A stretch of DNA of 64,000 bases from a plasmid: the sequence record NZ_CP035506.1, one strand, 5' to 3'. Shown here one piece after another: positions 29,300 to 64,000 of this stretch (its first letter is position 1; the number at the start of each line of letters is the position of its first letter). The notes below the pieces were generated by a model. That model ran no database searches. It saw only the letters and a program-made list of their open reading frames with translations, and had not been told where the DNA came from. Position numbers and translations under genes: made by a program.

Positions 29300-31594
29300 T
29301 CAGAGCAGCAGATGCGCCTCCGCGCCCAGCACATCGGCGAGTTCTGCGGGGGAGAGGCCGCGGTCATAGACGGCGAAGCCGGAGATCGCGCCGTCGAAGG
29401 CCCATCGCAGCGCATCCTGGGTTCCGGCGGTGCTGCGGGAATTGTCGGCCCCGACGATCAGGGCCTCGGAGTTCTGCTGCCAGTCGATGCCGGTCTGCAC
29501 CTGACCGATGAGCGCATTGTCGAGCCAGACCTGCCCGATGCCGCCGCCGAAGGCGATCTGCAGGGCGTGGCCGGTCCCGGCCTCTATGCCCTCGTGTCGG
29601 ATCATGGCGGTGGTGCGGCCATCCTCGAAGGCGATGTGCAGGGTGCCGCCGCTGATCCAGGCGCCAAGGCCGTGGCCGGTGCCTTCGGCATCCTTGGAGA
29701 AGAGCGCGCGGTTGCCGTCGACGCGGTCGGCGCTGAAGCCGAAGGCGATGGTCGCCTCTGGCAGGGCGAGGGCGGGGTCATGCGCAATGGCCGTGACCGG
29801 GTCCAGCCGCTGGGCCAGCTTCTCCGGCAGCACGAGGTTGCCCGACAGATCGAGATCGCGCAGCCCCGCAAGCCGGAGGGCGGGGCCGGCGCCGGAGCCG
29901 GGGGAGACGGGGATTTCTGCGCCCAGCACATCGGCGAGTTCTGCGGGGGAGAGGCCGCGGTCATAGACGGCGAAGTCGGAGATCGCGCCGTCGAAGGCCC
30001 ATCGCAGCGCATCCTGGGTTCCGGCGGTGCTGCGGGAATTGTCGGCCCCGACGATCAGGGCCTCGGAGTTGTGCTGCCAGTCGATGCCGGTCTGCACCTG
30101 ACCGATGAGCGCATTGTCGAGCCAGACCTGCCCGATGCCGCCGCCGAAGGCGATCTGCAGGGCGTGGCCGGTCCCGGCCTCTATGCCCTCGTGTCGGATC
30201 ATGGCGGTGGTGCGGCCATCCTCGAAGGCGATGTGCAGGGTGCCGCCGCTGATCCAGGCGCCAAGGCCGTGGCCGGTGCCTTCGGCATCCTTGGAGAAGA
30301 GCGCGCGGTTGCCGTCGACGCGGTCGGCGCTGAAGCCGAAGGCGATGGTCGCCTCTGGCAGGGCGAGGGCGGGGTCATGCGCAATGGCCGTGACCGGGTC
30401 CAGCCGCTGGGCCAGCTTCTCCGGCAGCACGAGGTTGCCCGACAGGTCGAGATCGCGCAGCCCCGCAAGCCGGAGGGCGGCCAGCAGCTCCCCCGGAAGG
30501 TCCCCCGGAAGGTCCCAGGGCGGGGACGTGATCCCTTCCCCGGCCAGAAGTTCCGCCAGCTTGTCGAGCGCACCGAAACCGGCGGCGGGCCCGTCGGGAT
30601 CGCGCAGAAGGAAATCCCGCCAGTCGCCGCCCGCCCCCTGAAAAAGCTCCGCGGCGGCCTTGTAGCCCTTGTAGAGATAGTTCTCCCCGATGGTGGAGGA
30701 TTTGGTTTCGTCCAGGATGGAACTGGCGAGGTTGCCCTCCACCGTCACACCGGAATTGTCGAAGCCATTCTTGAGGGTCAGGCGGATCACGCCGCCCTTG
30801 AAGACCTCCGGCCCGGCGATGAGGGAGTTGTTCAGAATGAAGACGTTCTCCTGCCCGCCGTCGATATAGATCGTGTTCGGGCTGCGGACGGAAACGAGGT
30901 TGTCCTCGATCAGGATGTTGCGGAACCCGGTCTCCTGCGGGCCGGACAGGAAGATGCCCTGCGCGATGATCAGGCCGGTCGCCGGATCGTCGTAAAGGTA
31001 GTTGCCCCGGATGATGATGTCATGGGGGGTCATGCCGTCATAGCCGTAGATCTGGATGAGGTCGGGGTGGATGTCGGGCGTGGCCGCCACGGTATCCCAC
31101 AGGACGTTGTTCTCGATCAGGCCGTTGTAGCTGTTGCGGCTGATCTGGATCAGGTCGGCGCCCGCGCGTTCAAAGACATTGTCCGCGATGGTGAAGTCCG
31201 ACACGGAGAAGAGGTTGAGGGTGTATTTGCCCTCCGAGACATGGTTGCCGGTGATCGTGGCGCCCGCCACGTCGCGGAAGTAGAGCGCGTGCCCCACACT
31301 GTTCGTCACCGCGATGTTGCTGGAGAAGGAGGCGCGGAATTCGCCCGTCATCGTCACCTGATCGAAGGTCAGGTTCTGGGCGTCCCGGATCGTCACCGTC
31401 TCGAAACGCGCGCCCCCCGGCGTGGCGGAGGTGATGGTGACGGGGCTGTCATAGGGCAGGACATTCGGTCCGTATCTGCCTTTCAGGTTGAGCGCGCCGT
31501 AATCGCCATCCGCAAGGACGATGGTGTCGCCTCCCGCTGCCGACTTCAGGGCGGCAAGAAGCCCCTCGGTATCGGATACATGGATCGTGGCCAT
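29300..31594 (-). CDS. Beta-helix protein with two near-identical C-terminal LamG-like domains; paralogue of 20888..23101
   Basis: N-terminus MATIHVSDTEGLLAALKSAAGGDTIVLADGDYG parallels MAIKLVDSVDDLLSALRVVKGGDTILLEDGDYG. The C-terminal 199-aa unit is repeated twice, nearly exactly. Confidence 0.75.
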   Translation of the reverse strand: MATIHVSDTEGLLAALKSAAGGDTIVLADGDYGALNLKGRYGPNVLPYDSPVTITSATPGGARFETVTIRDAQNLTFDQVTMTGEFRASFSSNIAVTNSVGHALYFRDVAGATITGNHVSEGKYTLNLFSVSDFTIADNVFERAGADLIQISRNSYNGLIENNVLWDTVAATPDIHPDLIQIYGYDGMTPHDIIIRGNYLYDDPATGLIIAQGIFLSGPQETGFRNILIEDNLVSVRSPNTIYIDGGQENVFILNNSLIAGPEVFKGGVIRLTLKNGFDNSGVTVEGNLASSILDETKSSTIGENYLYKGYKAAAELFQGAGGDWRDFLLRDPDGPAAGFGALDKLAELLAGEGITSPPWDLPGDLPGELLAALRLAGLRDLDLSGNLVLPEKLAQRLDPVTAIAHDPALALPEATIAFGFSADRVDGNRALFSKDAEGTGHGLGAWISGGTLHIAFEDGRTTAMIRHEGIEAGTGHALQIAFGGGIGQVWLDNALIGQVQTGIDWQHNSEALIVGADNSRSTAGTQDALRWAFDGAISDFAVYDRGLSPAELADVLGAEIPVSPGSGAGPALRLAGLRDLDLSGNLVLPEKLAQRLDPVTAIAHDPALALPEATIAFGFSADRVDGNRALFSKDAEGTGHGLGAWISGGTLHIAFEDGRTTAMIRHEGIEAGTGHALQIAFGGGIGQVWLDNALIGQVQTGIDWQQNSEALIVGADNSRSTAGTQDALRWAFDGAISGFAVYDRGLSPAELADVLGAEAHLLL
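29322..30480. repeat. Two near-identical 562-bp copies spaced 597 bp apart (29322-29883 and 29919-30480); in-frame tandem duplication inside the beta-helix gene
   Basis: The copies differ at only a few positions on direct comparison. Six-frame ORFs 29508..29966/30105..30641 and 29602..30012/30199..30573 are pairwise near-identical. Period 597 bp = 199 codons. Confidence 0.9.
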
Positions 31595-31672
31595 GGACTG
31601 TCTCCTTCGTTGAAGAAGACAGTCTGGGACCGAAATGAGGCTCCTTTGTGGCGGGAGCGATCTTGGACGAGA

Positions 31673-32803
31673 TCAGTTCTGCCGGGCGGGGCTGGCGGTG
31701 GTCCGGGTCCGCATCGGCTTGCCGTTCAGCAGGAATTCAAGGAGCGGCGACGGCTTGATGACATGGCGGTGCAGCGCGAAGACGATCACATAGGTAATGG
31801 CCGCGACGACGAAGAAGGTCGAATAGGGGCCGAGGCCGAGGGGGCGCAGCGCGAAGGCCACCGCATAGATGACCAGGAAGTGCATGATATAGACCGAATA
31901 GACATATCCTGCCGCCTTGGAGAGCCAGGTGGGACGATTCAGGAACCGCCGGAAGACGGCCATGAAGAGCGCCACCGCGGTTACGGTGCAGAAGGCCTTC
32001 GCCACGATCCGAACCACATCGCCCGCGGCGCCGGGCAGGCCGATCTTCACCCCCGCGACCGCCACCAGGATGCCGAGCACGAGGGCCGGAATGCTTACCG
32101 ACTGGAACCGGTCCGACAGCGCCGGATAGGCGAAAAGGATCATCCCCGTTATGTAGAAGGGCCAGTAATACATGGTCGTGGGGCCGATCCATGCGAGAGG
32201 CGTTGCTTCGAGCAGCGGGTCGAGGGCGACCTGATAGCCGACCCGGAGGGTCAGGCTGGCGGCCGCGATGGCAAGGGCGAGCAGCAGGATGACCGCCGTC
32301 GGCGGCAGCGATGCGAGCCGCGCGGCGATCCGTCCCCCCGGCTTCGAAAGACGCTGGCCAAGGGCGATGAGCGTGGGAGCCGTCGCCACGAAGAAGAAGA
32401 GGGTGAGCAGGAACCACAGATGCAGGTGCCAGACGCCCGGCCCCTTCAGGCGCGCGCTTTCCGGGTTCAGGATGGCGGACAGCGGGACCGGGCCATTGTG
32501 ATAGGTGGCCACGAGCCAGTTGGTGATCGGATTCAGCAAAACGAGGCCCGTTGCCAGAGGAACCAGAAGAGCAACCGACCGCCGCCGCAGGAAATCCCCC
32601 GCAGCATATCGCTGCAGCATCATTGCGGCGAAAAATCCTGAAACCAGGAAGAAAAGGCTCATCCGGAAATATCCCGATGTCACCGCGATCCAGCGCAGCC
32701 CTTCGGGCCGGTCGAGCGTCGTGACATGGACGAGAATGCCGTAGAGCATCGCGAAGGCACGCAAAGCGTCGAGGTAGTAGAGCCGGCCGGGGGAAGAGCT
32801 CAT
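31673..32803 (-). CDS. Acyltransferase_3 family membrane O-acyltransferase
   Basis: N-terminal motif YYLDALRAFAMLYGILVHV, multi-pass membrane protein. Confidence 0.75.
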   Translation of the reverse strand: MSSSPGRLYYLDALRAFAMLYGILVHVTTLDRPEGLRWIAVTSGYFRMSLFFLVSGFFAAMMLQRYAAGDFLRRRSVALLVPLATGLVLLNPITNWLVATYHNGPVPLSAILNPESARLKGPGVWHLHLWFLLTLFFFVATAPTLIALGQRLSKPGGRIAARLASLPPTAVILLLALAIAAASLTLRVGYQVALDPLLEATPLAWIGPTTMYYWPFYITGMILFAYPALSDRFQSVSIPALVLGILVAVAGVKIGLPGAAGDVVRIVAKAFCTVTAVALFMAVFRRFLNRPTWLSKAAGYVYSVYIMHFLVIYAVAFALRPLGLGPYSTFFVVAAITYVIVFALHRHVIKPSPLLEFLLNGKPMRTRTTASPARQN

Positions 32804-50800: not shown

Positions 50801-53296
50801 ATGGACGAAGGTGAGGATGTGACGGGCAAGAAGGTTCTTCGGGGGCGGATCGGCCTCGGTATTGCGCTGGCGGCTGGTATCGGGCTGCTCGCGGGCTGCG
50901 AATCCTCCGAGGAAAAGGCGCAGAAACACTACGAATCCGGGCTTGCCCTGCTGGAGCAGGGCGATGTCAGCCGGGCGATGGTGGAATTCCGCAACGTCTT
51001 CTCTCTCGACGGAAATCACCAGGAGGCAAGGCAGACCTATGCGCGGCTCCTGCGGGAGCAGGGCAGCGTGCGGGAGGCCTACAGCCAGTATCTCCGCCTC
51101 GTCGAACAATATCCTGACAATGCAGAGGGCAACCGGGCGCTGGCGGAGATGGCGCTCGATGCGAGCAACTGGGACGATGCGGACCGTTACGGCCGCGTCG
51201 CGCTGCGTCTGGCGCCCGATGAGCCGGAGGTTCAGGGCATCGGCGCGATGATCGACTACCGGGCCGCGCTGATGAGCCGGGACGAGGCTGCCGGACAGGC
51301 GGCGCTGCAGCGTGCTCAGGCGCTGGTCGGGCAGCATCCCGAGCTTGTCGTCGCGCGGCGGGTGACGCTCGACAGTCTGGTGCGCAAGTCGGACTGGGAG
51401 GCCGTGCTGGCCTCGCTCGACGAAGGGTTGCAGCACGACCCCAACTCCTTCGAGTTTCAGCGGATGCGGGCCGCCGCGCTCTTCCAGCTTGGCCGGACCG
51501 ATGATCTTGAGGCGCAGCTGCGCCAGATGGCCCTTGCCAATCCCGAAGACACAGAGATCGAGAATTCGCTGCTCGGCCTGTTCATCAACCAGAAACGTCC
51601 CGAGGCGGCCGAGGAGTTTCTGCGCAGCCGCGTCGATCCGGCCTCCGCCGATCCGGCGGCGCGCCAGCGGCTGGTGTCCTTCATCGCCCAGACCCGCGGC
51701 ATGCCCGCCGCACGGCAGGAGATCGACCGCATCGTCGCCGGCAATCCGCCGAAGGTCGGTATCTACCGCACCATGCGCGCCGGGATCGATTTCGACGCCG
51801 GAAACCGCGATGGCGCCATGGCTGAAATGCAGTCGATCATCGACAGCAAGCCCGAACCGGATGTGCTGAACCAGGCGCGCGTGACGCTCGCGCGGATGAT
51901 GGCGCAGGTCGGCAACAAGGTTGGCGGCCGGGCTCTGGTGGAGGAGGTGCTCGCCTCCACGCCCAGCGATGTCGATGCGCTTAAACTCAAGGGCAACTGG
52001 CTGATCGACGACGACAGGACCGGCGATGCGCTGGTCGCGCTCCGCTCCGCCCTCGAATATGCCCCCCGCGATCCGCAGATCATGACGCTCATGGCCCGCG
52101 CGCATGAGCGGGACGGCAGCCGAGACCTGATGGGGGAGATGCTTTCCCAGGCGGTGGTCGCCTCCAGCCGGGCGCCGTCCGAATCGCTGCGGTATGCCGC
52201 CTTCCTCGAGCAGGACGGCAAGCACCTTCCGGCGGAGGATGCGCTGGTCAACGCGCTCCGGCTTCAGCCGCGCAACGTCGACCTGCTCTCCGCGCTGGGG
52301 CGCGTCTATGTCGCGATGAAGGACTGGCCGCGCGCCGATCATGTCGTGCGCACCCTGAAGGAGATCGGTACCGATCAGGCGGTCAACTCCGCCAATGAGA
52401 TCACGGCGAACCGGCTCGCCGCGCTGAACCAGGATCAGGAACTCGCCGCCTTCCTGCGCGGTCTGGCCGCGGAGGGGGACAGTGGTCCCGGCGTGGAGCT
52501 TGCCCTGATTCGCACCAGCCTGCTGCGCGGCGACACGCAGGAGGCCCTGCGCCAGGCCGATGCCCTGCTCGCCAAGACGCCCGACAATCCGACGGCCCTT
52601 TACCTCCATGCCGCCGTGCTGCTCTCTGCCGGGCAGAAGGAAGGGCTTGACGAGATGCGCGCCCTTACCCAATCGCATCCCGGTTTCGAGATGGGCTGGG
52701 CCGCGCTGCACAATGCGCTGCTCAGCACCGGCGACACGGAAGGCGCGGGCAAGGTGCTGGAGGCGGGTCTTGCCGCGATTCCGACGGCCCCCACGCTTTC
52801 CTGGATCAAGGCGGGCATTCTGGAGAAATCCGGCGATATCGACGGGGCGATCACTCTTTACGAGGCGATGTACGAGCGCGATTCGAATTCGCCGATCATT
52901 GCCAACAACCTCGCCAGCCTGCTGGCCGGTTACCGGAGTGACGACGCAAGCCTCGACAGGGCCTATACGGTCGCCCGGCGGCTTCGCGGAACGACGGTGC
53001 CTGCCTTCCAGGACACCTATGGCTGGATCGCCTACCGGCGCGGCAACTTTGACGAGGCGCTCAGCAATCTGGAGCCTGCCGCCCAGGGCCTGCCGCAGGA
53101 TGGGACGGTGCAGTATCACCTTGCCATGACCTATTCCGCGCTTGGGCGGAAGGATGAGGCGAAGCAGCTTCTCCTCCGGCTCGATGAGGGGGCCATTCCG
53201 CTTCCTGCCGATTATGCCGACCGGGTAAAGGCGGAGCTTGCCCGCCTTGCCGCGCCGGATGCGCCTGTGGTCTCGACACCCGAGGCGCGCAACTGA
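50801..53296 (+). CDS. TPR-repeat lipoprotein (PrsT-like, exosortase/PEP-CTERM system-associated)
   Basis: Lipobox LLAGC after a positively charged N-terminus, then about 800 aa of tetratricopeptide repeats. A GTG start just downstream of 50801 is possible. Confidence 0.75.
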   Translation: MDEGEDVTGKKVLRGRIGLGIALAAGIGLLAGCESSEEKAQKHYESGLALLEQGDVSRAMVEFRNVFSLDGNHQEARQTYARLLREQGSVREAYSQYLRLVEQYPDNAEGNRALAEMALDASNWDDADRYGRVALRLAPDEPEVQGIGAMIDYRAALMSRDEAAGQAALQRAQALVGQHPELVVARRVTLDSLVRKSDWEAVLASLDEGLQHDPNSFEFQRMRAAALFQLGRTDDLEAQLRQMALANPEDTEIENSLLGLFINQKRPEAAEEFLRSRVDPASADPAARQRLVSFIAQTRGMPAARQEIDRIVAGNPPKVGIYRTMRAGIDFDAGNRDGAMAEMQSIIDSKPEPDVLNQARVTLARMMAQVGNKVGGRALVEEVLASTPSDVDALKLKGNWLIDDDRTGDALVALRSALEYAPRDPQIMTLMARAHERDGSRDLMGEMLSQAVVASSRAPSESLRYAAFLEQDGKHLPAEDALVNALRLQPRNVDLLSALGRVYVAMKDWPRADHVVRTLKEIGTDQAVNSANEITANRLAALNQDQELAAFLRGLAAEGDSGPGVELALIRTSLLRGDTQEALRQADALLAKTPDNPTALYLHAAVLLSAGQKEGLDEMRALTQSHPGFEMGWAALHNALLSTGDTEGAGKVLEAGLAAIPTAPTLSWIKAGILEKSGDIDGAITLYEAMYERDSNSPIIANNLASLLAGYRSDDASLDRAYTVARRLRGTTVPAFQDTYGWIAYRRGNFDEALSNLEPAAQGLPQDGTVQYHLAMTYSALGRKDEAKQLLLRLDEGAIPLPADYADRVKAELARLAAPDAPVVSTPEARN

Positions 53297-53513
53297 GCAG
53301 CCGTTGCCGAAGATGGCCGCCGCAGAGGGCCACCGGAAAGGAATGACGGGCTTGCCCAGCGGAACTTTGCCGGGCAAGCCTTTTATTCCGGCGGATTTTT
53401 CTTCAGAACCGCGGCAGAAGTGTCGCAGTCCTCGCCTTTTGCGGAGCTCGGCTTTCCACCTGCCCGCAAACCTCCTATCCCTGATCGTAACCATTCCCCA
53501 ACGGGTGCGCCTG

Positions 53514-54167
53514 ATGTTCAGAACCTTGCTCGGGATCTTTGTTTCCCCCCTTTCACGTATCGCGGCGGTCGCCCTTGTGGCGGGCGGCGTCGCCGGCGGT
53601 TTCTCCGCGCCTGCCTCGGCCCAGAGCGGCTATCACCTGCGTCCGGGCGATGTGGTGCAGGTCGAGGTGCTCGACGATCCGAGCCTCAACCGTTCCGTGC
53701 TCGTCCTTCCCGATGGCAGCATCAGCTTCCCGCAGGCCGGAACGCTGCGCGCCAGCGGCCGGACGGTGGAGCAGCTGCGCTCCGCCCTGACGCAGGGCCT
53801 CTCGCCGAACTTCGCTGCGACGCCTACCGTCTATGTCACCGTGGGAAGCGTCGCGCCGCCGCAGTCCGCCGCCGCTGCCGCGGAAGGATTTCCCGTATAT
53901 GTGATGGGAGAAGTTAACGAACCCGGCCGCAAGGACATCAAGTCCGGCACCACGCTGCTGCAGTTCCTGGCCGAGGCCGGTCAGCTCAGCCGCTTTGCCG
54001 CGCGGAATCGGATCGAACTCCACCGTCAGGATCCCCGGACCAAGGCTGCGGCCGTCTATCTCTTCGACCTCGACCATGTGGGGGGTGGCCAGAACCGGAT
54101 CAGCGGCATGACCACCATCACCGAAGGCGATGTCATCATCGTCCCGCAGCGCCGGCTGTTCGAGTAA
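53514..54167 (+). CDS. Polysaccharide export protein, Wza-like (Poly_export + SLBB domains; EpsE-like)
   Basis: Signal peptide, then YHLRPGDVVQVEV ... PDGSISFPQAGTLRASGRTVEQLRSAL, the Poly_export motif. Start at ATG 53514. Confidence 0.75.
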   Translation: MFRTLLGIFVSPLSRIAAVALVAGGVAGGFSAPASAQSGYHLRPGDVVQVEVLDDPSLNRSVLVLPDGSISFPQAGTLRASGRTVEQLRSALTQGLSPNFAATPTVYVTVGSVAPPQSAAAAAEGFPVYVMGEVNEPGRKDIKSGTTLLQFLAEAGQLSRFAARNRIELHRQDPRTKAAAVYLFDLDHVGGGQNRISGMTTITEGDVIIVPQRRLFE

Positions 54168-54171
54168 GCAG

Positions 54172-55653
54172 ATGACCCCTGCCCGTTCCGCATGCCTCGC
54201 TTCCCTCAGCCGGGAGACCGGGCGGCCCCGTGCTGCGGCAGGCTTTCGCCGGCTGCCGCTCGCATTTCTTCTTCTCGCCGGAACGGCCCTTGTGCCTGTG
54301 GAGGCGCCGGCACAGGCAGCAGGCGATCTGCCGAACCCGCTGCTGACGTTCAGCTTTTCGTCCTCACTGCATGTGAGCGACAACTATGACCTGTCGGATG
54401 ATCCGTCAGGAACCACCACCTATGTCGATAACACACTCGGCCTCAGCTACCTGAGCGAGACGGATGTCCAGAAGCTCAGCCTCGCGGCGAGCGGGGTGCT
54501 GCGTCTGGCCGATTATCCGAGCGATGCGACGAACAGCGGCTACCAGACCGATTTCGACAACCAGACCCTCCGCTTCGGCTATACGCTGACGGGGGCGGAC
54601 AGCGAATTGACATCGTCGGCCTATTACAACCGCGCCGACATCGCCTTCTTCGATCCGTTCCAGCTCGTGCAGGAAAATATCGATCTCGAAGCGCAGGATC
54701 TTTCAACCAGCGACGGGTATCGGGAGATGATCCGCGCCAGTGTCGGCTTCCGCACCGGCATGTCCGGGCCGCTCAGCTTCAATGCGGGGCTGAGCGCCTA
54801 CAAGCGGAACTTCCTTGAGACGAGCGACACGAGCTTCGAAGACAACGAAACCTATACGGCGACGGCAGGTTTCGGCTTCCTGATCACGCCGACCACCCGG
54901 CTGACGCTGGACGGGTTGTATCGCGACTATTCCGCCGACGATACGGAGCAGACCGACCGGCAGACCCGCTCGCTCTCCACGGGTGCCGTGCATGAGGTCA
55001 GTACCGGGCTCACGCTCAATGGCTCCATAGGCTATCAGGAGATCGAGAGCGAGAAGACCGATCTCTCCGGCTACCGCGGAACAGAGCGGACGACCGGGGT
55101 CATCGGCACTCTCGGCGCCACGCAGGAGCTGACCAACGGCACGGTCGGAATCAGTTTCGACCAGAGCCAGAATACCTCCGGCAGCCGTTCCACCCTCCAG
55201 GTGTCCCGCGCAATGGACCTGCCGAGCGGCAGCCTTGCGCTCAGCCTCGGCGCCTCGCGGGGCGACAGCGGCAAGACGACCGCCATCGGGTCGATCACCT
55301 ACAATCATGACCTGGAGAATGGGAGCCTTTCCGCACGGCTGTCGCAATCGGTCAGCACCAACAGCGACGACGAAGAGGTGGAGGCGCGCAATTTCCTGCT
55401 CCGGCTATCGCATGAGCTGACCCCGGTTTCGGGTGTTTCGCTGAGCGTAAGCTATGCCGATCTCAACAACCTCCAGGATTCCGGGGGCGACCGGACGCGC
55501 AGTCAGATCCGCGCGGCCTATTCCCATGACCTGACCCGGGACTGGGAGCTTTCGGGCGGTTACGAATATACCCAGCTGGAGCGCCCCGCAGGAACGGCCA
55601 AGGAAAACGCCGTCTTCCTGACCATACAGCGCCAGTTCCTTTTCAGGCCCTGA
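54172..55653 (+). CDS. Predicted outer-membrane beta-barrel protein of the exosortase locus
   Basis: Signal peptide LPLAFLLLAGTALVPVEAPAQA. Alternating amphipathic beta-strand pattern rich in S/T/Y/G/N/D. Ends QRQFLFRP. Confidence 0.5.
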   Translation: MTPARSACLASLSRETGRPRAAAGFRRLPLAFLLLAGTALVPVEAPAQAAGDLPNPLLTFSFSSSLHVSDNYDLSDDPSGTTTYVDNTLGLSYLSETDVQKLSLAASGVLRLADYPSDATNSGYQTDFDNQTLRFGYTLTGADSELTSSAYYNRADIAFFDPFQLVQENIDLEAQDLSTSDGYREMIRASVGFRTGMSGPLSFNAGLSAYKRNFLETSDTSFEDNETYTATAGFGFLITPTTRLTLDGLYRDYSADDTEQTDRQTRSLSTGAVHEVSTGLTLNGSIGYQEIESEKTDLSGYRGTERTTGVIGTLGATQELTNGTVGISFDQSQNTSGSRSTLQVSRAMDLPSGSLALSLGASRGDSGKTTAIGSITYNHDLENGSLSARLSQSVSTNSDDEEVEARNFLLRLSHELTPVSGVSLSVSYADLNNLQDSGGDRTRSQIRAAYSHDLTRDWELSGGYEYTQLERPAGTAKENAVFLTIQRQFLFRP

Positions 55654-55847
55654 GCTCAGGACCTGAAAAGATCCGTGGGGCCGGGTGCGCTCTCACAACC
55701 ATGTGAATTTTCTGTACCATTCGCGGCCGGGTCATGGTTTTGCTTCGGTTTCCGCATGTGCAGCCTTATGTTATACAGGGACATACTTCCGGCGAATATG
55801 CCGGGCGCCCTGGGCTATCCCCGGCCACATTTGACTAGAGGATTTCC

Positions 55848-57452
55848 ATGACGGCCGCGAACGAGAATTCCCGCTCCTCCCTGGCGGCTGCGCTTCCCTC
55901 GGTGAACGCCCCCGGTTTCATGTGGTTCATTCTGCTTCTGGCCGGGTCGATCCCGATCTTCTGGATCGGCTTCGTCTCGTTGGCGAAGGCCTGGTCCACG
56001 CCGGAATACAGCCATGGGCCGCTCATTCCGCTGATCTCGCTCTACCTCTTCCTGCGGGAGCTGCGGCAGATGCCTCCGCCCGCGGCCGAGGTGCGGGACC
56101 GCTGGCCGGGGCTCCTCGTCATTCTGCTGGGCCTCGTGGTTGCGCTGTTCGGCAACCTCACCCGCATTCCCGACATCGTCACCTATGCGATGATCATCTG
56201 GGTGGGCGGTGTGGTCCTCACCGTCTTCGGCTGGGAGCGGGGCAAGCATCATCAGCTTCCTGTCCTGCACCTGATCTTCATGCTGCCGCTGCCGCAGTTC
56301 CTCTACTGGCACCTGACGATCTTCCTGCAGGGGATCTCGTCGGAGATCGGCGTGTGGTTCGTGCGCCTTGCCGGTGTGCCGGTCTATCTCGAAGGCAATG
56401 TGATCGACCTCGGGGTCTACAAGCTGCAGGTGGCGGAAGCCTGTTCGGGCCTGCGCTACCTGTTCCCGATCCTGAGCTTCACCTATCTCTTCGCCATCCT
56501 CTATCGCGGCCCCTTCTGGCACAAGGCTGTGCTGATGCTGTCGGCCGTGCCGCTCACCGTGCTGATGAACTCCTTCCGCATCGGGGTGATCGGGGTGCTG
56601 GTGAACTCCTATGGTATCGAGCATGCCGAAGGGTTCCTGCACTTCTTCGAAGGCTGGGTGATCTTCATCGCCTGTATCGGCATCCTGTTCCTGATGGCGA
56701 TGGGCCTGCAACGGCTGACGCGGAACCCGCTGCCGCTGGCGGAGGCGATCGACCTCGATACCCGCGGCATGGCGCCGCTCATGGGGCGCATCCTGTCGAT
56801 CCGCCCCTCGAAGGCGCTGGCGGCGGGGGCACTGCTGACGCTTGCCCTGTCGGCGGGCTGGGCGCTGCATGGCGGGCCGCAGGCCCAGCAGATGGACCGG
56901 GAGCCTTTCGCGCTCTTCCCCCGGCAGTTCGGGGAATGGTCGGGCGCGGCCTCCGGTCTCGACCCGGAGATCGAGCGGGTGCTGGCCGCGACCGATTACA
57001 TGAACGCCGCCTATACCGCACCGGGCGAGAAGGACTATGTGCATTTCTTCTCGGCCTATTACGAGAAGCAGACGGAAGGCGCCGGCATCCACTCGCCGGA
57101 AGTCTGTCTCCCGGTCGGGGGCTGGGAGATCTTCACCTTCCAGCCGCACGAGGTGAGCTTCCCGGGAACGCCCTACGGTACCTTCACCGTGAACCGGGCG
57201 GTAATCCAGAAAGGGTTGTCCAAACAGCTCGTCTATTACTGGTTCGAGCAGCGCGGCAAGCGGATGACCAACGATTATCTCGCCAAGGCCAGCGTCGTCT
57301 GGGACAGCCTGACCCGCGGCCGTACGGACGGGGCGCTGGTGCGCTATGTCACCCCGATCGGCACGAACGAGAGCGAGGCCGACGCCGATGCCCGCATTCA
57401 GCGGCTGATGGCGAAAAGCCTGAACGTCCTGCCCCGCTACATTCCGTTCTGA
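55848..57452 (+). CDS. Exosortase (EpsH/XrtA-like) fused to a C-terminal EpsI-family domain
   Basis: N-terminal 8-TM exosortase region ([30 protein letters not shown] with the conserved Cys, [10 protein letters not shown] with the conserved Arg). Then a roughly 230-aa periplasmic EpsI-like domain. 534 aa in total. Confidence 0.8.
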
Positions 57453-57475
57453 CTTGCTGAAGGCAAACTGAACAA

Positions 57476-57496
57476 CCCGGCTCCGGCCGGGTTTTC
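57476..57496 (+). terminator. Rho-independent terminator-like hairpin (CCCGGCTCCGGCCGGG + TTTTCT)
   Basis: GC-rich stem-loop followed by a T-run, 24 bp after the exosortase stop. Confidence 0.5.
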
Positions 57497-57784
57497 TGCG
57501 TTGCAGCATGTCGGGCGCAGCGAATCCCCCTTGTTCGGACACAACTTTCCAAAACGAAAGTATTCAACAGTTCACCTGCAAGCAGGTGGATGAAAGAGAA
57601 TTTTCAATCCTAAGACGAAGATGATTGCCTCTCCCATTTCGCGCCTCACGATAAAAGTTATTAAAAATAACACCTTTACGGCGAGCGCATCGGGCTATTC
57701 CAGCGAACAAGTTCAAGAAATTCCGATCTTTTGTGCCATATCGGGGACAAAGGCGCTCTCTTAGGGTCAGGACTCTTTCTCGGG

Positions 57785-58048
57785 TCATAGCCAGAACATG
57801 ACGGTTGCTGCGAGAGCGATGGCGGAAAGGAAGACCTTGGGGCACCTGTCGTAGCGGGTTGCGACGCGGCGCCAGTCCTTCAATCGCCCGAACATGATCT
57901 CAATCCTGTTGCGGCGTCTGTAGCGGCGCTTGTCATACTTGATGGGTATGCCGCGCGATTTCCGGCCGGGGATGCAGGGTTTTATCCCCTTGTCCTTCAA
58001 CGCTTCTCTGAACCAGTCGGCATCATAGCCGCGGTCCGCCAGCAGCCA
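57785..58048 (-). pseudogene. IS5-family DDE transposase, C-terminal fragment
   Basis: Translation LLADRGYDADWFREALKDKGIKPCIPGRKSR...RRRNRIEIMFGRLKDWRRVATRYDRCPKVFLSAIALAATVMFWL is typical of the IS5/IS427 group. The frame continues upstream across the Tn3 insertion. Confidence 0.75.
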
Positions 58049-58086
58049 GGGGGCTGATGCCGGAGGGGGCAGGATCCTACGTTAAG
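58049..58086. repeat. Tn3-family 38-bp terminal inverted repeat (left)
   Basis: GGGG...ACGTTAAG architecture. The tnpA stop codon lies inside the IR. Confidence 0.8.
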
Positions 58087-60967
58087 CCCTTTTCGGCCAC
58101 TTGTATTCGCCAGTGAGCAGGACATGGGCCCAACCGAGGGGCGAGATGTGCGCCAGAAGGTTCGGCGAACAGTCCAGGCCTTCGCGGCGGCGGCTGGCGA
58201 CGGCCTGGCCGAGATGCTTGGTGTTCCAGTAGATGACGATCGCGGCAAGAAGGTTCAGCCCGGCCATGCGGAAGTGCTGGGCTTCGGAGGTGCGGTCCCT
58301 GATCTCGCCCTGGCGGCCGATGCGGAGAGCGTTCTTCAGCGCGTGGTGGGCTTCGCCCTTGTTCAGGCCGATCTGGGCGCGGCGCTGCATGCCGGCATCA
58401 AGCAGCCAGTCGATGATGAAGAGCGTCCGTTCGACCCGTCCGATTTCCCGCAAGGCGACCGCCAGTTCATGTTGCCTCGGGTAGGACGCGAACTTCCGCA
58501 GGAGTTGGCTCGGCGGGATGGCTCCTGACGCCATGGTCGCCACGCTGCGCAGGATATCGGGCCAGTTCGCGGCGATGAGGGACTGCCTGATCTTGCCGCC
58601 GATCAGCCCTTTCAGCTCTTTCGGGCAGGCGGCCGGATCGAAGAGGTAGAGGCGCTTGGATGGCAGGTCGCGGATGCGGGGGATGAACTGGAAGCCCAGC
58701 AGGGCGGTGACGGCGAAGACGTGGTCGGTGAAGCCGCCAGTATCGGCATATTGCTCCCGGATCTTCTGCCCGGCGCTGGTCATCAGCAGGCCATCGAGGA
58801 TGTAGGGCGCTTCGTTCACGGTAGCCGGGATGGTCTGTGTGGCGAAGGGACCGAACTGGTCGGAGACATGGGTGTAGGCTTTCAGCCCGGGCTCATGGCC
58901 GTACTTGGCGTTGATCAGATTCATCGCCTCGCCCTGGCGTGTCGTCGGGAAGAACTGCCCGTCGCTCGATGCGGTCTGTCCGGCGCCCCAGAACTGCGCC
59001 ATCGGCAGTGCCGACTGCCCGTCGATCACCATGGCCAGGGCGCGGGCCATCGCCTCGCTTTCGACATGCCAGCGCGACAGGCGGGAAAGCTGGAAGAAGT
59101 CGTGCGTGTTCGTGGCCCCGGCCATCTTGCTGAGGCCGAGATTCAGCCCCTCGGCAAGCAACACGTTCAGCAGGCCGATCCGGTCCCTGCACGGCGCGCC
59201 GGTGCGCAGATGCGTAAAGGCCTCGGTGAAGCCAACCTCCGCATCCACTTCGAGCAGGAGATCGGTGACCCTGACTTCCGGCAGGCGGCCATAGAGGTCG
59301 AGCACCAAGGCGTCGGCTTCCTCGGGAACCGCCGCAGCCAGCCGGTCGATTTTCAAGGTGCCGTCCTCGATGGAGCCTCCCGGCATGGTCCCGGCCCTAG
59401 CCGCACGCGCCAGGCGATGCAGGGCGTCAGCCATTCGGGCTTTGCGGTCGGCCAGCCAGGTTTCCGGCTCGAACGGCATGGCCAGCCTCGGCGTGGCGCG
59501 GGCGACGTCGACCGGGACCAGCGCTTCCTTCAGGTCGCCATACCTGCGCGAATGCGCCAGCCAGATATCACCGGAACGGAAGGCTTCGCGCAGATGGAAC
59601 AGGACCGCGACCTCCCATATCCGGTGCTCATCTTCGCCATCCAGGTGGCGGTGCCACTTCGAGGCGCGGCGCAGAAAGGTCAGCGGCCGGACGTCTGGTG
59701 TCGCCGTGCCCGCGATGACCGCGCTTGCCGCCAGCAGCGGCTCCGCCACGGGCGCGGCACAGATGTCGAGTACCCGCAGCATGCGCGGCGCATAACGCCG
59801 GAAGCGATGATATCCGTGACCGACATGCGCCAGCGGATCAGCGGCAAACGTGTCGGTCAGTTGAGCGGCCGTGGCGACAAGCCCCTTGAGGGATATCCAG
59901 CCGCCGGCATTGCCGACGGCCTCTTCGAGAGAGGCCCGATCCTCATGCGCTTCCAGGAGCGCCGCTCCCAATGTCCTGAAGGATTGCAGGGTGTCCTTCA
60001 GCGCCGATCTGGCATCGTCCATCCGGGCGTCACATCGTGACTTCGCCTCGCGCCAGGTCTTGCCCACGATGCGGTCATGGGTCTCGACGACAGCGTCAGC
60101 AATGGCGCAGCGCCATTCCAGCGCGCAGACCGCAAGGATGGCGAGGCGGCGGTCACCCGAGATATCCCTCAGATCGCCTGCGAAGTATCGCTCTCCCTGC
60201 CGACGAAGGCGGGCAACGCGGTGTGGCGGCACATCCGCCAGAATGCCCCGGTCCAGCGCCAGCGCGCGCAGGTATTCCAGCCGGTCCAGAAGGCGGTTCA
60301 TGTCGGCCGAATTCTGCCCGGTTTCGAACTGGCGCAGCCAGACGAACCGCGTGACCGAGCCGCCCGCATCTTCGGTCAGGAGGGCATCGAGACGTGCTCG
60401 CATGGCATCGTCCAGCCGGCCACCGATCCGGGCGTCGATCCGGCGCTCGGCCGCGACAAGCGCCTCCGCGCAAAGCCGCTCGATGACCGTGATCCCCGGG
60501 AAGATGGTCTGGGTTGCCCGGCACTGCTCGACGAAGCGCCGTGCCAGATCCTCGTTCGACCGGGCGGCTTCGGCGGCATCCTCAAGCCATATTTTCAGGT
60601 CACGTGCCCCACGGCCCGCGAACATCTTGTAGCCATAGATCTCGCGCAAGGCGGCCAGGTGCTCATGCCGGGTCTCTTCCCGGGTCGCATACCCGGCCAG
60701 ATCGTCAGGCCTCATCCCGAGCTGCGCTGCCAGAAAGCGCGTGACCGCCAGCGGAATGACCTCGCCCGGCGCCAGCAGCCGCCCCGGATACCGAAGCGCG
60801 CAGAGCTGCAGGGCGAAACCGAAGCGGTTGTGCGGACGACGACGGGCGCGGACGATCTCCAGATCGTCGTCTGCCAGCGTGTAGTGGCGCAGCATCGACG
60901 CGTCATCGGTCGGCAGGTCGAACAATGCCGCCCTTTGCCGGGCGGTCAGGATGCTGCGTCTTGGCAT
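58082..60967 (-). CDS. tnpA: Tn3-family transposase TnpA
   Basis: 961 aa. N-terminus MPRRSILTARQRAALFDLPTDD (DUF4158-like) and a large C-terminal DDE domain typical of Tn3 TnpA. Confidence 0.9.
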   Translation of the reverse strand: MPRRSILTARQRAALFDLPTDDASMLRHYTLADDDLEIVRARRRPHNRFGFALQLCALRYPGRLLAPGEVIPLAVTRFLAAQLGMRPDDLAGYATREETRHEHLAALREIYGYKMFAGRGARDLKIWLEDAAEAARSNEDLARRFVEQCRATQTIFPGITVIERLCAEALVAAERRIDARIGGRLDDAMRARLDALLTEDAGGSVTRFVWLRQFETGQNSADMNRLLDRLEYLRALALDRGILADVPPHRVARLRRQGERYFAGDLRDISGDRRLAILAVCALEWRCAIADAVVETHDRIVGKTWREAKSRCDARMDDARSALKDTLQSFRTLGAALLEAHEDRASLEEAVGNAGGWISLKGLVATAAQLTDTFAADPLAHVGHGYHRFRRYAPRMLRVLDICAAPVAEPLLAASAVIAGTATPDVRPLTFLRRASKWHRHLDGEDEHRIWEVAVLFHLREAFRSGDIWLAHSRRYGDLKEALVPVDVARATPRLAMPFEPETWLADRKARMADALHRLARAARAGTMPGGSIEDGTLKIDRLAAAVPEEADALVLDLYGRLPEVRVTDLLLEVDAEVGFTEAFTHLRTGAPCRDRIGLLNVLLAEGLNLGLSKMAGATNTHDFFQLSRLSRWHVESEAMARALAMVIDGQSALPMAQFWGAGQTASSDGQFFPTTRQGEAMNLINAKYGHEPGLKAYTHVSDQFGPFATQTIPATVNEAPYILDGLLMTSAGQKIREQYADTGGFTDHVFAVTALLGFQFIPRIRDLPSKRLYLFDPAACPKELKGLIGGKIRQSLIAANWPDILRSVATMASGAIPPSQLLRKFASYPRQHELAVALREIGRVERTLFIIDWLLDAGMQRRAQIGLNKGEAHHALKNALRIGRQGEIRDRTSEAQHFRMAGLNLLAAIVIYWNTKHLGQAVASRRREGLDCSPNLLAHISPLGWAHVLLTGEYKWPKRA

Positions 60968-61132
60968 GGCGATCTTTCAGGAAATCGTGATGGACGACCG
61001 TCCGTAAGGGGATCGGTGAGCGGACATGTGTCGAGAGGGTTGGGAGCGGTAAGGAAACCGCACTCCATCCTATCTCGTATAGATGGTACGATTTGATTCG
61101 CACATGCCGCCCCTTATCCGTACACTCGCTAC
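60968..61132. promoter_or_regulatory. Putative res site / divergent promoter region between tnpA and tnpR
   Basis: Position between divergently transcribed tnpA and tnpR, as in Tn3-family elements. Sub-sites not resolved by eye. Confidence 0.4.
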
Positions 61133-61720
61133 ATGACCGTGACCAAAATTGGCTATGCCCGCTGCTCCACCGACCGTCAGGACCTGACAGCGCAACGTGC
61201 TGCCCTTGCAGAGCTTGGGGTCACCGTAGACCGCATCTACACGGACCATGGCCTGACCGGCACGAACCGCGCCCGCCCCGGTCTCGACCAAGCGCTTGCT
61301 GCTGTGCGAGAAGGCGACGTGCTGGTCGTGCCGAAACTCGATCGCCTTGCGCGCTCGGTCCCGGACGCACGGGCCATCGCGGATCAGTTGGAAAAGAAGG
61401 GCGTCAAGCTTGCCCTCGGCGCATCGGTCTACGATCCGACCGACCCGATGGGAAAGATGTTCTTCAACATCCTCGCCACCTTCGCCGAGTTCGAGGCCGA
61501 CCTCATCCGCATGCGTACCCGCGAAGGTATGGCCATCGCCCGAGCCAGGGGCAAGCTTCGGGGAAAGCAGCCGAAACTCTCGGAAAAACAACAAAAAGAA
61601 CTGAGCCGGATGCACGCCTCCGGCGAATATTCCATCAGCGATCTCGCTGAGCTCTTTGCCGTCTCAAGACCGACCGTCTACAGGACGCTGCAGCGAAATC
61701 CGGCCAAAACTCAGCCTTAG
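61133..61720 (+). CDS. tnpR: Serine recombinase / resolvase TnpR
   Basis: N-terminal catalytic motif IGYARCSTDRQDLTAQ and C-terminal HTH. The stop codon lies within IR-R. Confidence 0.9.
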   Translation: MTVTKIGYARCSTDRQDLTAQRAALAELGVTVDRIYTDHGLTGTNRARPGLDQALAAVREGDVLVVPKLDRLARSVPDARAIADQLEKKGVKLALGASVYDPTDPMGKMFFNILATFAEFEADLIRMRTREGMAIARARGKLRGKQPKLSEKQQKELSRMHASGEYSISDLAELFAVSRPTVYRTLQRNPAKTQP

Positions 61721-61753
61721 CGTAGGATTCTGCCCCCTCCGGCATCAGACCCC
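61716..61753. repeat. Tn3-family 38-bp terminal inverted repeat (right)
   Basis: The reverse complement matches IR-L at 34 of 38 positions. Confidence 0.8.
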
Positions 61754-62264
61754 AGCCAGTCCGCCTTTGGCAAGCTGCCCAGAAGTGCTGCGGCACCCGT
61801 GTAGTCACTGACCTGACCTGCGGTCACGAAGAAGCGGATTGGCCGGCCATCAGCATCGGTGACGGCGTGCAACTTGGTGTTCATGCCGCCCTTGGTTCGG
61901 CCGATCAATCGGCCCCTCTGATCGTTGGCTCCCCCTTTTTCGCTCGCAGGCTGGTCGCCGTGCGATGCGCCTTGAGATAGGTCGCGTCGATCATCACCGT
62001 CTCCGGAACTGCCGACTCTGCCGCCAGGCCGAGCATCATCCGGGCGAAGACACCCCTGTCGCTCCACCGCTTCCAACGGTTGTAGAGCGTCTTCGACGGG
62101 CCATACTCCTTGGGAGCGTCGCGCCATCGCAAACCATTGCGATTAATGAAGATAATGCCGCTGAGAACGCGCCGGTCATCAACACGCGGCTTGCCATGGC
62201 TCTTGGGAAAGAAGGGCTCCAGGCGCGACATCTGCGCCTCCGTCAGCCAAAAGAGGTTGCTCAT
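61754..62264 (-). pseudogene. IS5-family transposase, N-terminal two-thirds (orfA + start of orfB, with a putative -1 frameshift site)
   Basis: orfA MSNLFWLTEAQMSRLEPFFP... and orfB ...GMNTKLHAVTDADGRPIRFFVTAGQVSDYTGAAALLGSLPKADWL. The reverse strand has a GAAAAAGGGGG slippery-like motif near 61931-61942. The frame joins fragment 57785-58048 exactly once the TSD is removed. Confidence 0.7.
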
Positions 62265-62474
62265 TCATCGGTCTCCTTGCGGAGCCTGAATCATGCTGAA
62301 AGCGCAAGATCAATGGGTCCTGACCCTAAGCGCAAGCAGCTGAGTTTTATTAATAAACTAGGAAATATTAAAAAAACCACTGTCACGCCGCATCGCAACA
62401 TGTTAATAATTGACATAAGCGTGATGAACTCGGCTCCGGCCCCTGAGCCGATTGGCAGAATTATGGAGAGAAAC

Positions 62475-63026
62475 ATGTTGAAGAAGGTTGTTACGGCTGC
62501 CCTCATCGCCGCGGCCTCCGCTGCCTCGGCAAATGCTGCTGTCATTTATGCAAGCAGCGTGGTTTCGGCTAAACAGAAGGGCTATGTTGCGCCGGTGCGC
62601 AGCAACCCGATCGCAGCAACGGGTGCCGAGGATGGGAGCTTCTACTCCCTCGGCTTCGGTGGCAGCATCGTGCTCGGCTTCTCGAGCCTGGTGAGCGGCG
62701 CTGGGAAGGTGTTCGAAGTCACCAACCTCCCGCGGGAAACCTATATCGAGAGCGCGATCTTCTCGGTCAGCCTCGACGGAAAATCCTGGACCACTCTGGG
62801 AGAATACTCCAACCAGGTCAGCTCGCTCTATTCGGCGACGCCGTTCCTCTTCCTCAAGGTGGAGGATACCAGCCCGGTGATCGCCGGCCATGGCCGTGAC
62901 GGCTATGACATCGACGCCATCGGCTTCGAAGAATATGTCGCCGCGGTTCCGCTTCCGGCGGCGGGCCTGCTGCTGATCGGTGGTCTGGCCGGCCTGGGTG
63001 CCATGAAGCGCCGCAAAGCGGCCTGA
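62475..63026 (+). CDS. Secreted protein with C-terminal VPLPA-CTERM (PEP-CTERM-variant) sorting signal; candidate exosortase substrate
   Basis: Signal peptide MLKKVVTAALIAAASAASANA. C-terminus VPLPAAGLLLIGGLAGLGAMKRRKAA is a VPLPA motif followed by a TM helix and a basic tail. GGAGAG RBS 4 nt upstream. An AT-rich promoter region precedes it. Confidence 0.7.
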   Translation: MLKKVVTAALIAAASAASANAAVIYASSVVSAKQKGYVAPVRSNPIAATGAEDGSFYSLGFGGSIVLGFSSLVSGAGKVFEVTNLPRETYIESAIFSVSLDGKSWTTLGEYSNQVSSLYSATPFLFLKVEDTSPVIAGHGRDGYDIDAIGFEEYVAAVPLPAAGLLLIGGLAGLGAMKRRKAA

Positions 63027-63216
63027 GCCTCAAGAAACGATTTTCGGAACGCCGGTGCGATTGCGCCGGCGTTTTGCTTTCCGGGTTGCTTCCAAGGTTT
63101 CCCTTGCATCCTGGGCGTTGCTGGATCACCTCTCAGGCATCATGCGGCCCGACAAACCCCTTCCCGCCCGTCAGCGTCCCCGCTTCCCGCGGCGGGAGGG
63201 CATTCTGACAGACCGA

Positions 63217-63828
63217 ATGCGCGCCATGCCGGTGGTGCTCGTGCTGTTCGTGGCCTGCCTGATCCCGGAACTCATTCTTTCCGGAGCTGATTACGGGCTT
63301 TGGGGCGATCCCGGCTGGCGGCTCTGGGCCTGGCAGCATGGCGGCTTCTGGACGGGGCTTCTGGGCAACTGGCGGCCCAACTATGCCGCGCAACCCTGGC
63401 TCATGTTCCTGACCTACGGCTTCCTGCACGGGGGGGTGATCCATTTCGGGGTGAACATGCTCACCCTGTTCTCTCTTGCGCCACCGCTGGTGGAGCGGAT
63501 GGGACAGGGACGGTTCCTGCTGCTCTACATGGCATCCATGATCGGTGGCGGTCTGGGCTTTGCGCTGCTGTCCCAGTCTCCGCAGCCGATGGTGGGGGCG
63601 TCGGGGGCGCTGTTCGGGCTGGCGGGCGCGGTCATGGCGCTGAGCTGGCAATATCTGCGGGCACGGGGGGAGAGCCTCAGGCCGGTGATCCGGTCCCTTC
63701 TGTGGCTTGCCGGGCTGAACCTGGTCCTCTGGTGGGCGATGAGCGGGATGTTGGCCTGGGAAACCCATCTGGGTGGTTTCGTCGTCGGCTGGCTCATGGG
63801 CCTGTGGCTGGTGAGGGATGGGCGATAG
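63217..63828 (+). CDS. Rhomboid-family intramembrane serine protease
   Basis: Six TM helices, catalytic GASGALFGL (GxSG) and a downstream His in ETHLGGFVVGW. Start placed at ATG 63217; the ORF is open to 63055. Confidence 0.7.
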   Translation: MRAMPVVLVLFVACLIPELILSGADYGLWGDPGWRLWAWQHGGFWTGLLGNWRPNYAAQPWLMFLTYGFLHGGVIHFGVNMLTLFSLAPPLVERMGQGRFLLLYMASMIGGGLGFALLSQSPQPMVGASGALFGLAGAVMALSWQYLRARGESLRPVIRSLLWLAGLNLVLWWAMSGMLAWETHLGGFVVGWLMGLWLVRDGR

Positions 63829-63898
63829 CTGCATTGCAGCGACTTGTCATGCTCCGGCTCTGCTGGCAGGCTGCCATGACGACTTCGGAGAGATATCT

Positions 63899-64000
63899 TT
63901 GACGAAACATGTATTGGTCACTGGCGGAGCAGGGTATATCGGCTCCCATGCCTGCAAGGCATTACAGCGCGCCGGCTATGTGCCCGTCACCTACGATAGC
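63899..64000 (+). CDS. galE: UDP-glucose 4-epimerase (GalE) N-terminus, truncated by the window end
   Basis: Translation (L)TKHVLVTGGAGYIGSHACKALQRAGYVPVTYDS is the GalE Rossmann N-terminus. Probable TTG start with a GGAGAG RBS. Confidence 0.55.
   Translation, partial: MTKHVLVTGGAGYIGSHACKALQRAGYVPVTYDS

Follow-up and report, generated by a model that had tools for sequence, protein, structure and literature searches.

We analysed a 64,000-nucleotide stretch of plasmid DNA (the window) and focused on the spacer that separates an exosortase gene from the gene of its predicted substrate. The exosortase, XrtD, matches TIGR04152 at 710 bits (cut-off 400), and the C-terminus of the protein encoded downstream matches TIGR03370 at 39.6 bits (cut-off 25.35). 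Both components of an XrtD/VPLPA-CTERM sorting system are thus present, and the placement of the insertion between exosortase and target in a first-pass annotation of this DNA stands. The substrate gene has a start codon and an SD sequence, and its counterpart in another strain (L091) was called as a 183-aa gene. The two genes are also neighbours in Falsirhodobacter and in Haematobacter massiliensis CCUG 47968. The spacer holds an insertion sequence (IS) of the IS5 family, IS427 group, which is itself interrupted by a Tn3-type element. The features are as follows.

55848 to 57452, plus strand: xrtD, intact, encoding an exosortase specific for VPLPA-CTERM with a fused EpsI domain (TIGR04152; Pfam Exosortase_EpsH and DUF3485/EpsI)
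57762 to 57763: TA target-site duplication of the IS, xrtD side (from the empty site in L011)
57764 to 58048, minus strand: 3' part of the IS, IS positions 569-853 in the transposase sense (100% identical to L090, L093 and L094)
58044 to 58048: left-hand AGCCA, from the 5-bp target duplication of the Tn3-type element
58049 to 58086: tnpA-proximal 38-bp inverted repeat (IR) of the Tn3-type element, with GGGG start and ACGTTAAG end (35/38 against the other IR)
58082 to 60967, minus strand: tnpA, Tn3-family DDE transposase, intact, 961 aa (NF033527; Pfam DUF4158 and DDE_Tnp_Tn3)
60968 to 61132: tnpA-tnpR spacer, divergent promoter region and candidate res site (position as in Tn3/Tn3434)
61133 to 61720, plus strand: tnpR, serine resolvase, intact, 195 aa (Pfam Resolvase, 143 bits, and HTH_7)
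61716 to 61753: tnpR-proximal 38-bp IR of the Tn3-type element, with the tnpR stop codon inside it
61754 to 61758: right-hand AGCCA, from the same 5-bp target duplication
61759 to 62326, minus strand: 5' part of the IS, IS positions 1-568 (100% identical to intact copies)
61931 to 61940, minus strand: slippery run AAAAAGGGGG in the orfA/orfB overlap, with a predicted -1 shift joining orfA and orfB
62327 to 62328: TA target-site duplication of the IS, VPLPA side (from the empty site in L011)
62475 to 63026, plus strand: VPLPA-CTERM protein gene, predicted XrtD substrate, intact (TIGR03370 at the C-terminus)

The Tn3-type element spans window positions 58049-61753 (3705 bp), exactly where the first-pass annotation had put it. 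Its terminal IRs, GGGGGCTGATGCCGGAGGGGGCAGGATCCTACGTTAAG and GGGGTCTGATGCCGGAGGGGGCAGAATCCTACGCTAAG, follow the pattern GGGG...ACG(T/C)TAAG that is typical of the Tn3 family. Their length of 38 bp was given correctly before, while the earlier identity of 34/38 has to be replaced by 35/38. The two AGCCA copies reported earlier are found directly outside these repeats. The only genes inside are tnpA and tnpR, and the tnpA stop codon lies within the tnpA-proximal IR. Non-coding bases amount to 33 + 165 + 33, leaving no space for cargo, in agreement with the earlier description of a cargo-free element. A profile search matched TnpA to NF033527 along its full length (profile positions 2-954 of 954) with a score of 1062.7 bits (cut-off 500), and there are Pfam matches to PF01526 and PF13700. 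TnpA also aligns end to end with the Tn4430 transposase (PDB 7QD4/7QD8), and D669, D742 and E872 fall opposite its acidic triad. TnpR has the catalytic-serine motif YARCSTDRQ. Transposase, IRs of about 38 bp and a 5-bp target-site duplication (TSD) all fit the Tn3 family, to which we assign the element.

A three-way alignment of the tnpA-tnpR spacer with relatives from Pseudosulfitobacter and Cereibacter showed four blocks common to all: GTCCGTAAGGGGA, GCGGACA, TCTCGTATAGATGGTACGA and TTATCCGTACACTC. The third of these is the inverted motif TCGTA-N7-TACGA. Position and conserved blocks together suggest a res site between tnpA and tnpR. Its subsites could not be defined, as a repeat search of the spacer detected no inverted repeats and a single direct repeat of 9 nt.

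We then considered the host IS. Deleting the Tn3-type element and one AGCCA copy in silico leaves an IS of 853 bp and joins ...LPKADWL to LADRGYDADW... in a single frame, which bears out the earlier claim that excision restores a contiguous transposase gene. Three unrelated contigs (L090, L093 and L094) carry uninterrupted copies, and the reconstructed IS agrees with each of them at 100% from end to end. Its 5' part contains orfA (61905-62264), the start of orfB and a terminal IR at 62312-62326; its 3' part contains the C-terminal part of orfB and the other terminal IR at 57764-57778. These IRs, GGGTCAGGAC, are perfect over 10/10 positions and match at 13/15 on extension. The product of orfA matches DUF4096 in Pfam, and the domains of the whole transposase are PF13340 and PF01609/PF13586. 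Fused OrfAB (...SLRAKKGGANDQ...) matches NF033580 in one stretch at 279.9 bits (cut-off 110 bits) over profile positions 3-258 of 258, so the IS5/IS427 assignment made earlier was sound. A programmed -1 frameshift is predicted to produce this fusion, and two-ORF frameshifting has been described for the IS427 group (PMC3281130).

The ends of the IS differ from those first proposed. An earlier reading gave 16-bp IRs at 57760-57775 and 62314-62329, but these are one base off register and include bases of the palindromic CTTAAG target. Comparison with the empty site in CCUG 47968 (L011), which reads CTCTCTTA followed directly by AGCGC and is otherwise identical, has a 2-bp TA overlap and sets the true ends at 57764 and 62326; the IS length and IR coordinates given before were therefore wrong. 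The TA duplication is seen again at the copies on L090 and L093. Transposase type, two overlapping ORFs, length, IRs and TA duplication are all as expected of the IS427 group. Named Paracoccus members of the group (IS1248, ISPaes1 and ISPak1) are of like size, 832-853 bp, and likewise make a 2-bp duplication; they are multi-copy, with IRs of 14-21 bp and two overlapping ORFs with a frameshift motif (PMC3281130). The best DNA matches of the host IS in PLSDB were at 87% (Thioclava) and 84% (Paracoccus yeei), and it would probably merit its own name under the ISfinder convention.

Next, we compared empty and occupied sites. In CCUG 47968 the IS is absent, and in H. missouriensis (L012) neither the IS nor the transposon lies between the same flanks, where the spacer has diverged. 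In strain L091 this locus carries the same IS at identical TA junctions, with an uninterrupted AGCCA site and no Tn3-type element. It follows that the IS came first and the Tn3-type element second, which upholds the two-step history proposed from the window. The window alone does not order the two events at this locus. With the IS ends intact, and with intact copies in related genomes able to supply transposase, a 4.56-kb composite of IS and transposon might have entered the spacer as a unit, moved in trans by their transposase. We regard this as highly improbable: L091 shows that a close relative had the IS alone at the very same TA junctions, and no second composite was present among 20 TnpA-carrying or 24 OrfA-carrying contigs. 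There is still less to recommend an assembly artefact from collapsed repeats, whose likelihood we consider negligible. Both elements are indeed multi-copy repeats at which short-read contigs break, but target duplications are clean at both junction pairs and in silico excision gives back the exact known IS. Furthermore, two independent metagenome contigs from one sample (L009 and L095) both end exactly at the IS/Tn3 junctions.

The copies of the Tn3-type element elsewhere bear on its activity. Copies of 3705 bp with 100% identity occur at no fewer than five sites with different flanking duplications, and on this basis we judge that the element, which is intact, has been active recently and very probably remains so, in line with the earlier suggestion that it may still be active. 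The TSD is ACGCT on pOT1-7, GGGGT on pOT1-9 and on many metagenome contigs, and TTCAT on L105. At the pOT1-8 copy the flanking repeat is 19 bp long instead of 5 bp, a length not accounted for by the standard mechanism; a search for the empty site of this copy returned only pOT1-8 itself. A copy at 99.9% identity is found in Salipiger profundus plasmids, and a related transposon at 89% in Pseudosulfitobacter. The H. massiliensis OT1 plasmids have one copy per replicon, a distribution consistent with Tn3-type target immunity. Window positions 52000-57759 had no Haematobacter match in PLSDB, which covers eight of the nine OT1 plasmids (pOT1-6 is left out). Supposing that the window comes from strain OT1, it would have to belong to the chromosome or to pOT1-6, and several copies would lie within one genome.

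Identical copies could also arise if the element were an inert relic spread by recent duplication or plasmid recombination. One contig (L108) joins the left flank of one site to a different right flank, which could be the product of homologous recombination between two copies or of chimeric assembly. Nevertheless, four sites with unrelated flanks have distinct 5-bp direct repeats directly outside perfect IRs, both ORFs run their full length and encode the catalytic residues, and a near-identical copy exists in another genus. An inert relic is therefore very unlikely.

The closest named relative, judged from sequence identity, is Tn3434a. Tn3434 and Tn3434a (Paracoccus pantotrophus and P. aminophilus; Dziewit et al. 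2012, PMC3281130) have the same cargo-free plan, with IR, tnpA pointing away from res, tnpR pointing the other way and a second IR, at 3695-3699 bp against 3705 bp here. The Tn3434a IR matches the tnpR-side IR of our element at 36/38 positions and the tnpA-side IR at 33/38. Among isoforms of Tn3434 the DNA varies by about 2% and the resolvase is identical. We considered whether the window element is the same as Tn3434 and rejected this, as against Tn3434a on pAMI1 its tnpA DNA is 79% identical, TnpA 84.9% and TnpR 40.5% (195 aa here, 203 aa there). It is a relative, not an isoform, and the low TnpR identity indicates a resolvase/res module of a different type. This module is common to elements in Pseudosulfitobacter (TnpR 92.8%) and Cereibacter (84.6%). 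The Tn3434a copy on pAMI1 has a 5-bp duplication (ATCAT), as has the window element, whereas published Paracoccus relatives are reported to make 6-bp duplications (PMC3281130). Tn3434 is multi-copy on plasmids (PMC3281130), and the cryptic tnpA-res-tnpR transposons Tn3434a (3695 bp, 38-bp IRs) and Tn6122 were captured as functional in Paracoccus (PMC3281130; PMC3925955).

Tn6122 (P. halophilus) was compared through its homologue on pSD20 of Ruegeria sp. PR1b, which has the same gene organisation and a similar size. It is more distant, with TnpA at 75%, TnpR at 34% and tnpA DNA at 72%, and its 39-bp IRs have an internal sequence unlike that of our element. Tn3 and gamma-delta (Tn1000) have 38-bp IRs, a serine resolvase and a 5-bp duplication, with tnpA and tnpR diverging from res. 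Like those of the window element, their IRs start with GGGGTCTGA and end with ACG(T/C)TAAG. The window element differs from them in having no bla or other passenger gene, and the proteins are only distantly related.

Taken together, we favour two successive transpositions in a Haematobacter massiliensis-like genome, an IS into the xrtD-VPLPA spacer and then a cryptic, still probably active Tn3-type element into the IS, and put the probability of this history at about 0.92. In the first step, the 853-bp IS would have entered the AT-rich spacer and duplicated the TA of a CTTAAG target. In the second, the 3705-bp cryptic transposon of the Tn3434 lineage (IR, divergent tnpA and tnpR around res, IR; no cargo) would have entered the IS transposase gene and duplicated AGCCA. 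By analogy with characterised family members, this may have been replicative "copy-in" transposition via a cointegrate, which TnpR would resolve at res between tnpA and tnpR. The host IS copy has thereby lost its own transposase with both ends kept, and could presumably move only with transposase provided in trans by an intact copy.

The insertion is intergenic: xrtD ends 311 bp before it, and the substrate gene begins 148 bp beyond it. As both flanking genes are intact, the "functionally coupled locus" carries no demonstrated functional consequence. It is conceivable, if doubtful, that the insertion is not neutral and that the spacer is a recurrent hot spot, with insertions retained for their effect on expression of the exosortase substrate. 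At least three different occupants of this spacer occur in close relatives, and the IS ends just 148 bp from the VPLPA-CTERM start codon. The first occupant is the IS427-type IS, which bears the Tn3-type element in the window and a site-specific IS110 element in L091. The second is a sequence in L004 that begins at the very same TA; its 27-nt tail past the TA site had no match among the sequences compared. The third is a 3.3-kb unit in H2240, an IS1380 together with a second VPLPA-CTERM gene. Against this, the GC content of the spacer is 46%, compared with 65% for the genome, so that it is probably no more than a preferred, harmless target, and a promoter/terminator scan located no sigma-70-like promoter in the native spacer of L011. 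This null scan says nothing on how the insertion affects the VPLPA-CTERM gene. We likewise think it unlikely that the AT-rich spacer is a recurrent landing site where mobile elements import or rewire exosortase-substrate genes and so vary a surface protein between strains; if it were, the nested IS and transposon would count among the alternative states of a variable switch region and not as neutral junk.

On the preferred two-step history, the locus is an ordinary, textbook example of nested mobile DNA. Its significance beyond annotation is small, and no new mechanism is involved. The region does give a clean, datable series, from empty site to IS to IS with the transposon inside, and the Tn3-type element could be used as a strain marker. 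A cargo-free transposon of the Tn3434 lineage with a swapped resolvase module circulates on plasmids of Haematobacter, Salipiger and Pseudosulfitobacter (89%), and it could offer a natural case of how Tn3-family elements exchange their transposition and resolution modules.

What lies between the exosortase gene xrtD and the gene for its VPLPA-CTERM substrate is a nested insertion of an ordinary sort, involving two elements of known kinds: a Tn3-family transposon, referred to here as the Tn3-type element, inside an 853-bp host insertion sequence (IS) of the IS5 family, IS427 group. Both already carry generic annotation in public genomes. The first-pass annotation of this region was essentially right, and the corrections are small, concerning the match count in the inverted repeats (IRs) of the transposon (35/38) and the ends, IRs, and TA duplication of the host IS.

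Features of the locus (window coordinates)
55848-57452: xrtD, intact (TIGR04152, 710 bits)
58044-58048 and 61754-61758: AGCCA direct repeats abutting both ends of the Tn3-type element
58049-61753: Tn3-type element, 3705 bp, both ends read in the sequence
58082-60967, minus strand: tnpA, Tn3-family transposase, 961 aa
61133-61720, plus strand: tnpR, serine resolvase, 195 aa
62475-63026: VPLPA-CTERM protein gene, intact, with a C-terminal TIGR03370 domain

The Tn3-type element contains only tnpA and tnpR, separated by a 165-bp spacer, and there is no space for cargo, as the stop codons of both genes lie inside the IRs. TnpA is a full-length Tn3-family transposase (NF033527, 1062.7 bits; DUF4158 and DDE_Tnp_Tn3), and TnpR is a serine resolvase with an HTH_7 domain, both by Pfam and NCBIfam profiles. 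Gene content and profile matches thus bear out the earlier description of a minimal element. TnpA can be aligned over its entire length with the Tn4430 transposase, whose structure is solved, and D669, D742, and E872 fall opposite the residues we take to be the Tn4430 acidic triad. The IRs are 38 bp long as first described, with 35 rather than 34 matching positions, and the perfect 5-bp AGCCA duplication is present.

Excising the Tn3-type element and one AGCCA in silico joins the separated parts of an IS5-family transposase gene in frame. Three unrelated metagenome contigs (L090, L093, and L094) carry uninterrupted copies to which the reconstructed IS is 100% identical over its full length; we regard this match as a stronger test of the reconstruction than the in-frame join. 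The proposal that removal restores a contiguous IS5/IS427-type reading frame therefore stands. The host IS has two overlapping ORFs, and a predicted -1 shift at AAAAAGGGGG (61931-61940, minus strand) would give a 256-aa product matching positions 3-258 of 258 in NF033580. In H. massiliensis CCUG 47968 (L011), the two IS flanks adjoin directly and share a TA; H. missouriensis (L012) has the same flanks without the IS, in a diverged spacer lacking the TA overlap. These relatives place the IS ends at 57764 and 62326, with a 2-bp TA duplication. The terminal IRs are GGGTCAGGAC, with 13/15 matches on extension. The 16-bp IRs originally assigned to the IS did not hold up, as the palindromic target CTTAAG accounts for their surplus matches and the two ranges were out of register by one base. 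Length, IR size, 2-bp duplication, and frameshift all agree with the IS427 group as described in Paracoccus (PMC3281130). No plasmid in PLSDB matched the host IS at more than 87%.

The empty site in a relative identifies the host IS as a gain at this locus. Contig L091, which comes from a different sample, carries the same IS with identical TA junctions and the same two genes on either side, and its AGCCA site is uninterrupted, with a 1386-bp IS110-family element 50 bp away; the IS was therefore at this site before the Tn3-type element. Arrival of the IS and transposon as a pre-formed composite is unlikely given this unbroken copy. Two contigs from one sample (L009 and L095) terminate exactly at the two IS/Tn3 junctions, which is expected assembly-graph behavior where interrupted and intact copies diverge. 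The split IS has zero differences from intact copies, indicating that the Tn3 insertion is recent. The recent two-step history first proposed is thus supported at each stage.

In other samples, the same IS110-family element (NF033542, 342 aa) splits the IS (L091 2350-3735, L092, L098, and L099), always at CAGGTCAG^AGTGACTACA (IS positions 518/519, window ~61808-61809). Split copies are present at two loci, xrtD and aquaporin; the aquaporin locus of a further sample carries the IS uninterrupted, so one position was hit independently in two or more IS copies. Relatives in Alloyangia and Paracoccus alcaliphilus, 95% identical, are surrounded by similar sequence (..GGTCAG^AGCGAYTACA). The IS110-family element is plausibly RNA-guided, with a conserved segment of IS427-group transposase genes as its natural target.

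The TIGR04152 and TIGR03370 matches confirm the neighbors named in the first-pass annotation. The IS lies 311 bp past xrtD and 148 bp ahead of the substrate gene's start codon, in a spacer of 46% GC versus 65% for the window. A scan of the native spacer in L011 located no promoter. In Haematobacter genomosp. 1 H2240 (L010 11828-15279), the same spacer is occupied by a 3340-bp unit between perfect 112-bp direct repeats of spacer DNA. It encodes an IS1380-family transposase together with a choice-of-anchor-A protein that ends in VPLPA-CTERM and is a second substrate for XrtD, and the unit is reminiscent of the Paracoccus IS1380 "transposable modules." In L004 (11917-11943; Logan SRR27187793), unrelated sequence GCAACTGTATCTGTCAGGTGGCCGGGG straight after the identical TA target suggests a third insertion at this dinucleotide. 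Directly 3' of the VPLPA-CTERM gene is a rhomboid-family intramembrane protease gene (63055-63828), a placement kept in several relatives (L013, L018-L020, and L033); its product matches the rhombosortase profile weakly (31.6 bits, cut-off 84). L091 157-2349 is 96% identical to window 61808-64000, on the VPLPA-CTERM/rhomboid side, compared to 99.4% on the xrtD side, consistent with either faster divergence or recombination on the substrate side. Elsewhere in the window, a tandem 565-bp repeat (29319-29883 and 29916-30480; period 597 bp, 99.3% identity) lies inside a 1123-aa ORF (29270-32641).

Megablast against PLSDB found full-length, 100% identical copies of the Tn3-type element on three H. 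massiliensis OT1 plasmids, one each (genome described in PMC6498234), 99.9% copies in Salipiger profundus, and 89% relatives on ~144 Pseudosulfitobacter plasmids. PLSDB covers eight of the OT1 plasmids (pOT1-6 is the exception), and none of the eight carries the flank of the window. Flanks of the copies differ at each site. The flanking repeat is AGCCA in the window, ACGCT on pOT1-7, GGGGT on pOT1-9 and several metagenome contigs, and TTCAT on L105. The pOT1-8 copy, also 100% identical, has a 19-bp direct repeat, TTTTCAACGTGTGCTGAAA, in place of a 5-bp duplication (L002 4120-4138 and 7844-7862), and no empty site for it was found in PLSDB. The copies are identical, their 5-bp duplications differ, the genes are intact, and the element has spread across genera, so recent transposition appears to be the only economical reading, in keeping with the earlier suggestion that the element may still be active. 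Judging from its family, the element, whose anatomy, duplications, and multi-copy state were seen directly, would move by copy-in replicative transposition via a cointegrate, which TnpR would resolve at a candidate res in 60968-61132. Four blocks of this spacer are conserved in the Pseudosulfitobacter relative and, in a Cereibacter relative, 5' of tnpR; one block is an inverted TCGTA-N7-TACGA.

Cryptic tnpA-res-tnpR transposons are already established in this family of bacteria: PMC3281130 describes the capture of Tn3434/Tn3434a (3695 bp, 38-bp IRs) and Tn6122 as functional transposons, and P. aminophilus has Tn3434a in four plasmid copies (PMC3925955). We located Tn3434a on pAMI1 for direct comparison. 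Its TnpA is 84.9% identical to that of the Tn3-type element (tnpA DNA 79%) and its IR matches the tnpR-side IR at 36/38, but its TnpR is just 40.5% identical, and we rejected assignment as a Tn3434 isoform on these TnpA and TnpR values. The Tn6122-like element of Ruegeria PR1b is 75% identical in TnpA and 34% in TnpR. These identities make the Tn3-type element a Tn3434-lineage relative with a different resolvase module. In the relative on Cereibacter sphaeroides plasmid p.D (L112; TnpA 75%, TnpR 85%), two cargo genes, one for a MarR-family regulator and one hypothetical, separate tnpA from tnpR (4466-5414). They were inserted at the res-proximal position, and the backbone is minimal apart from them. 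This backbone is therefore able to acquire cargo.
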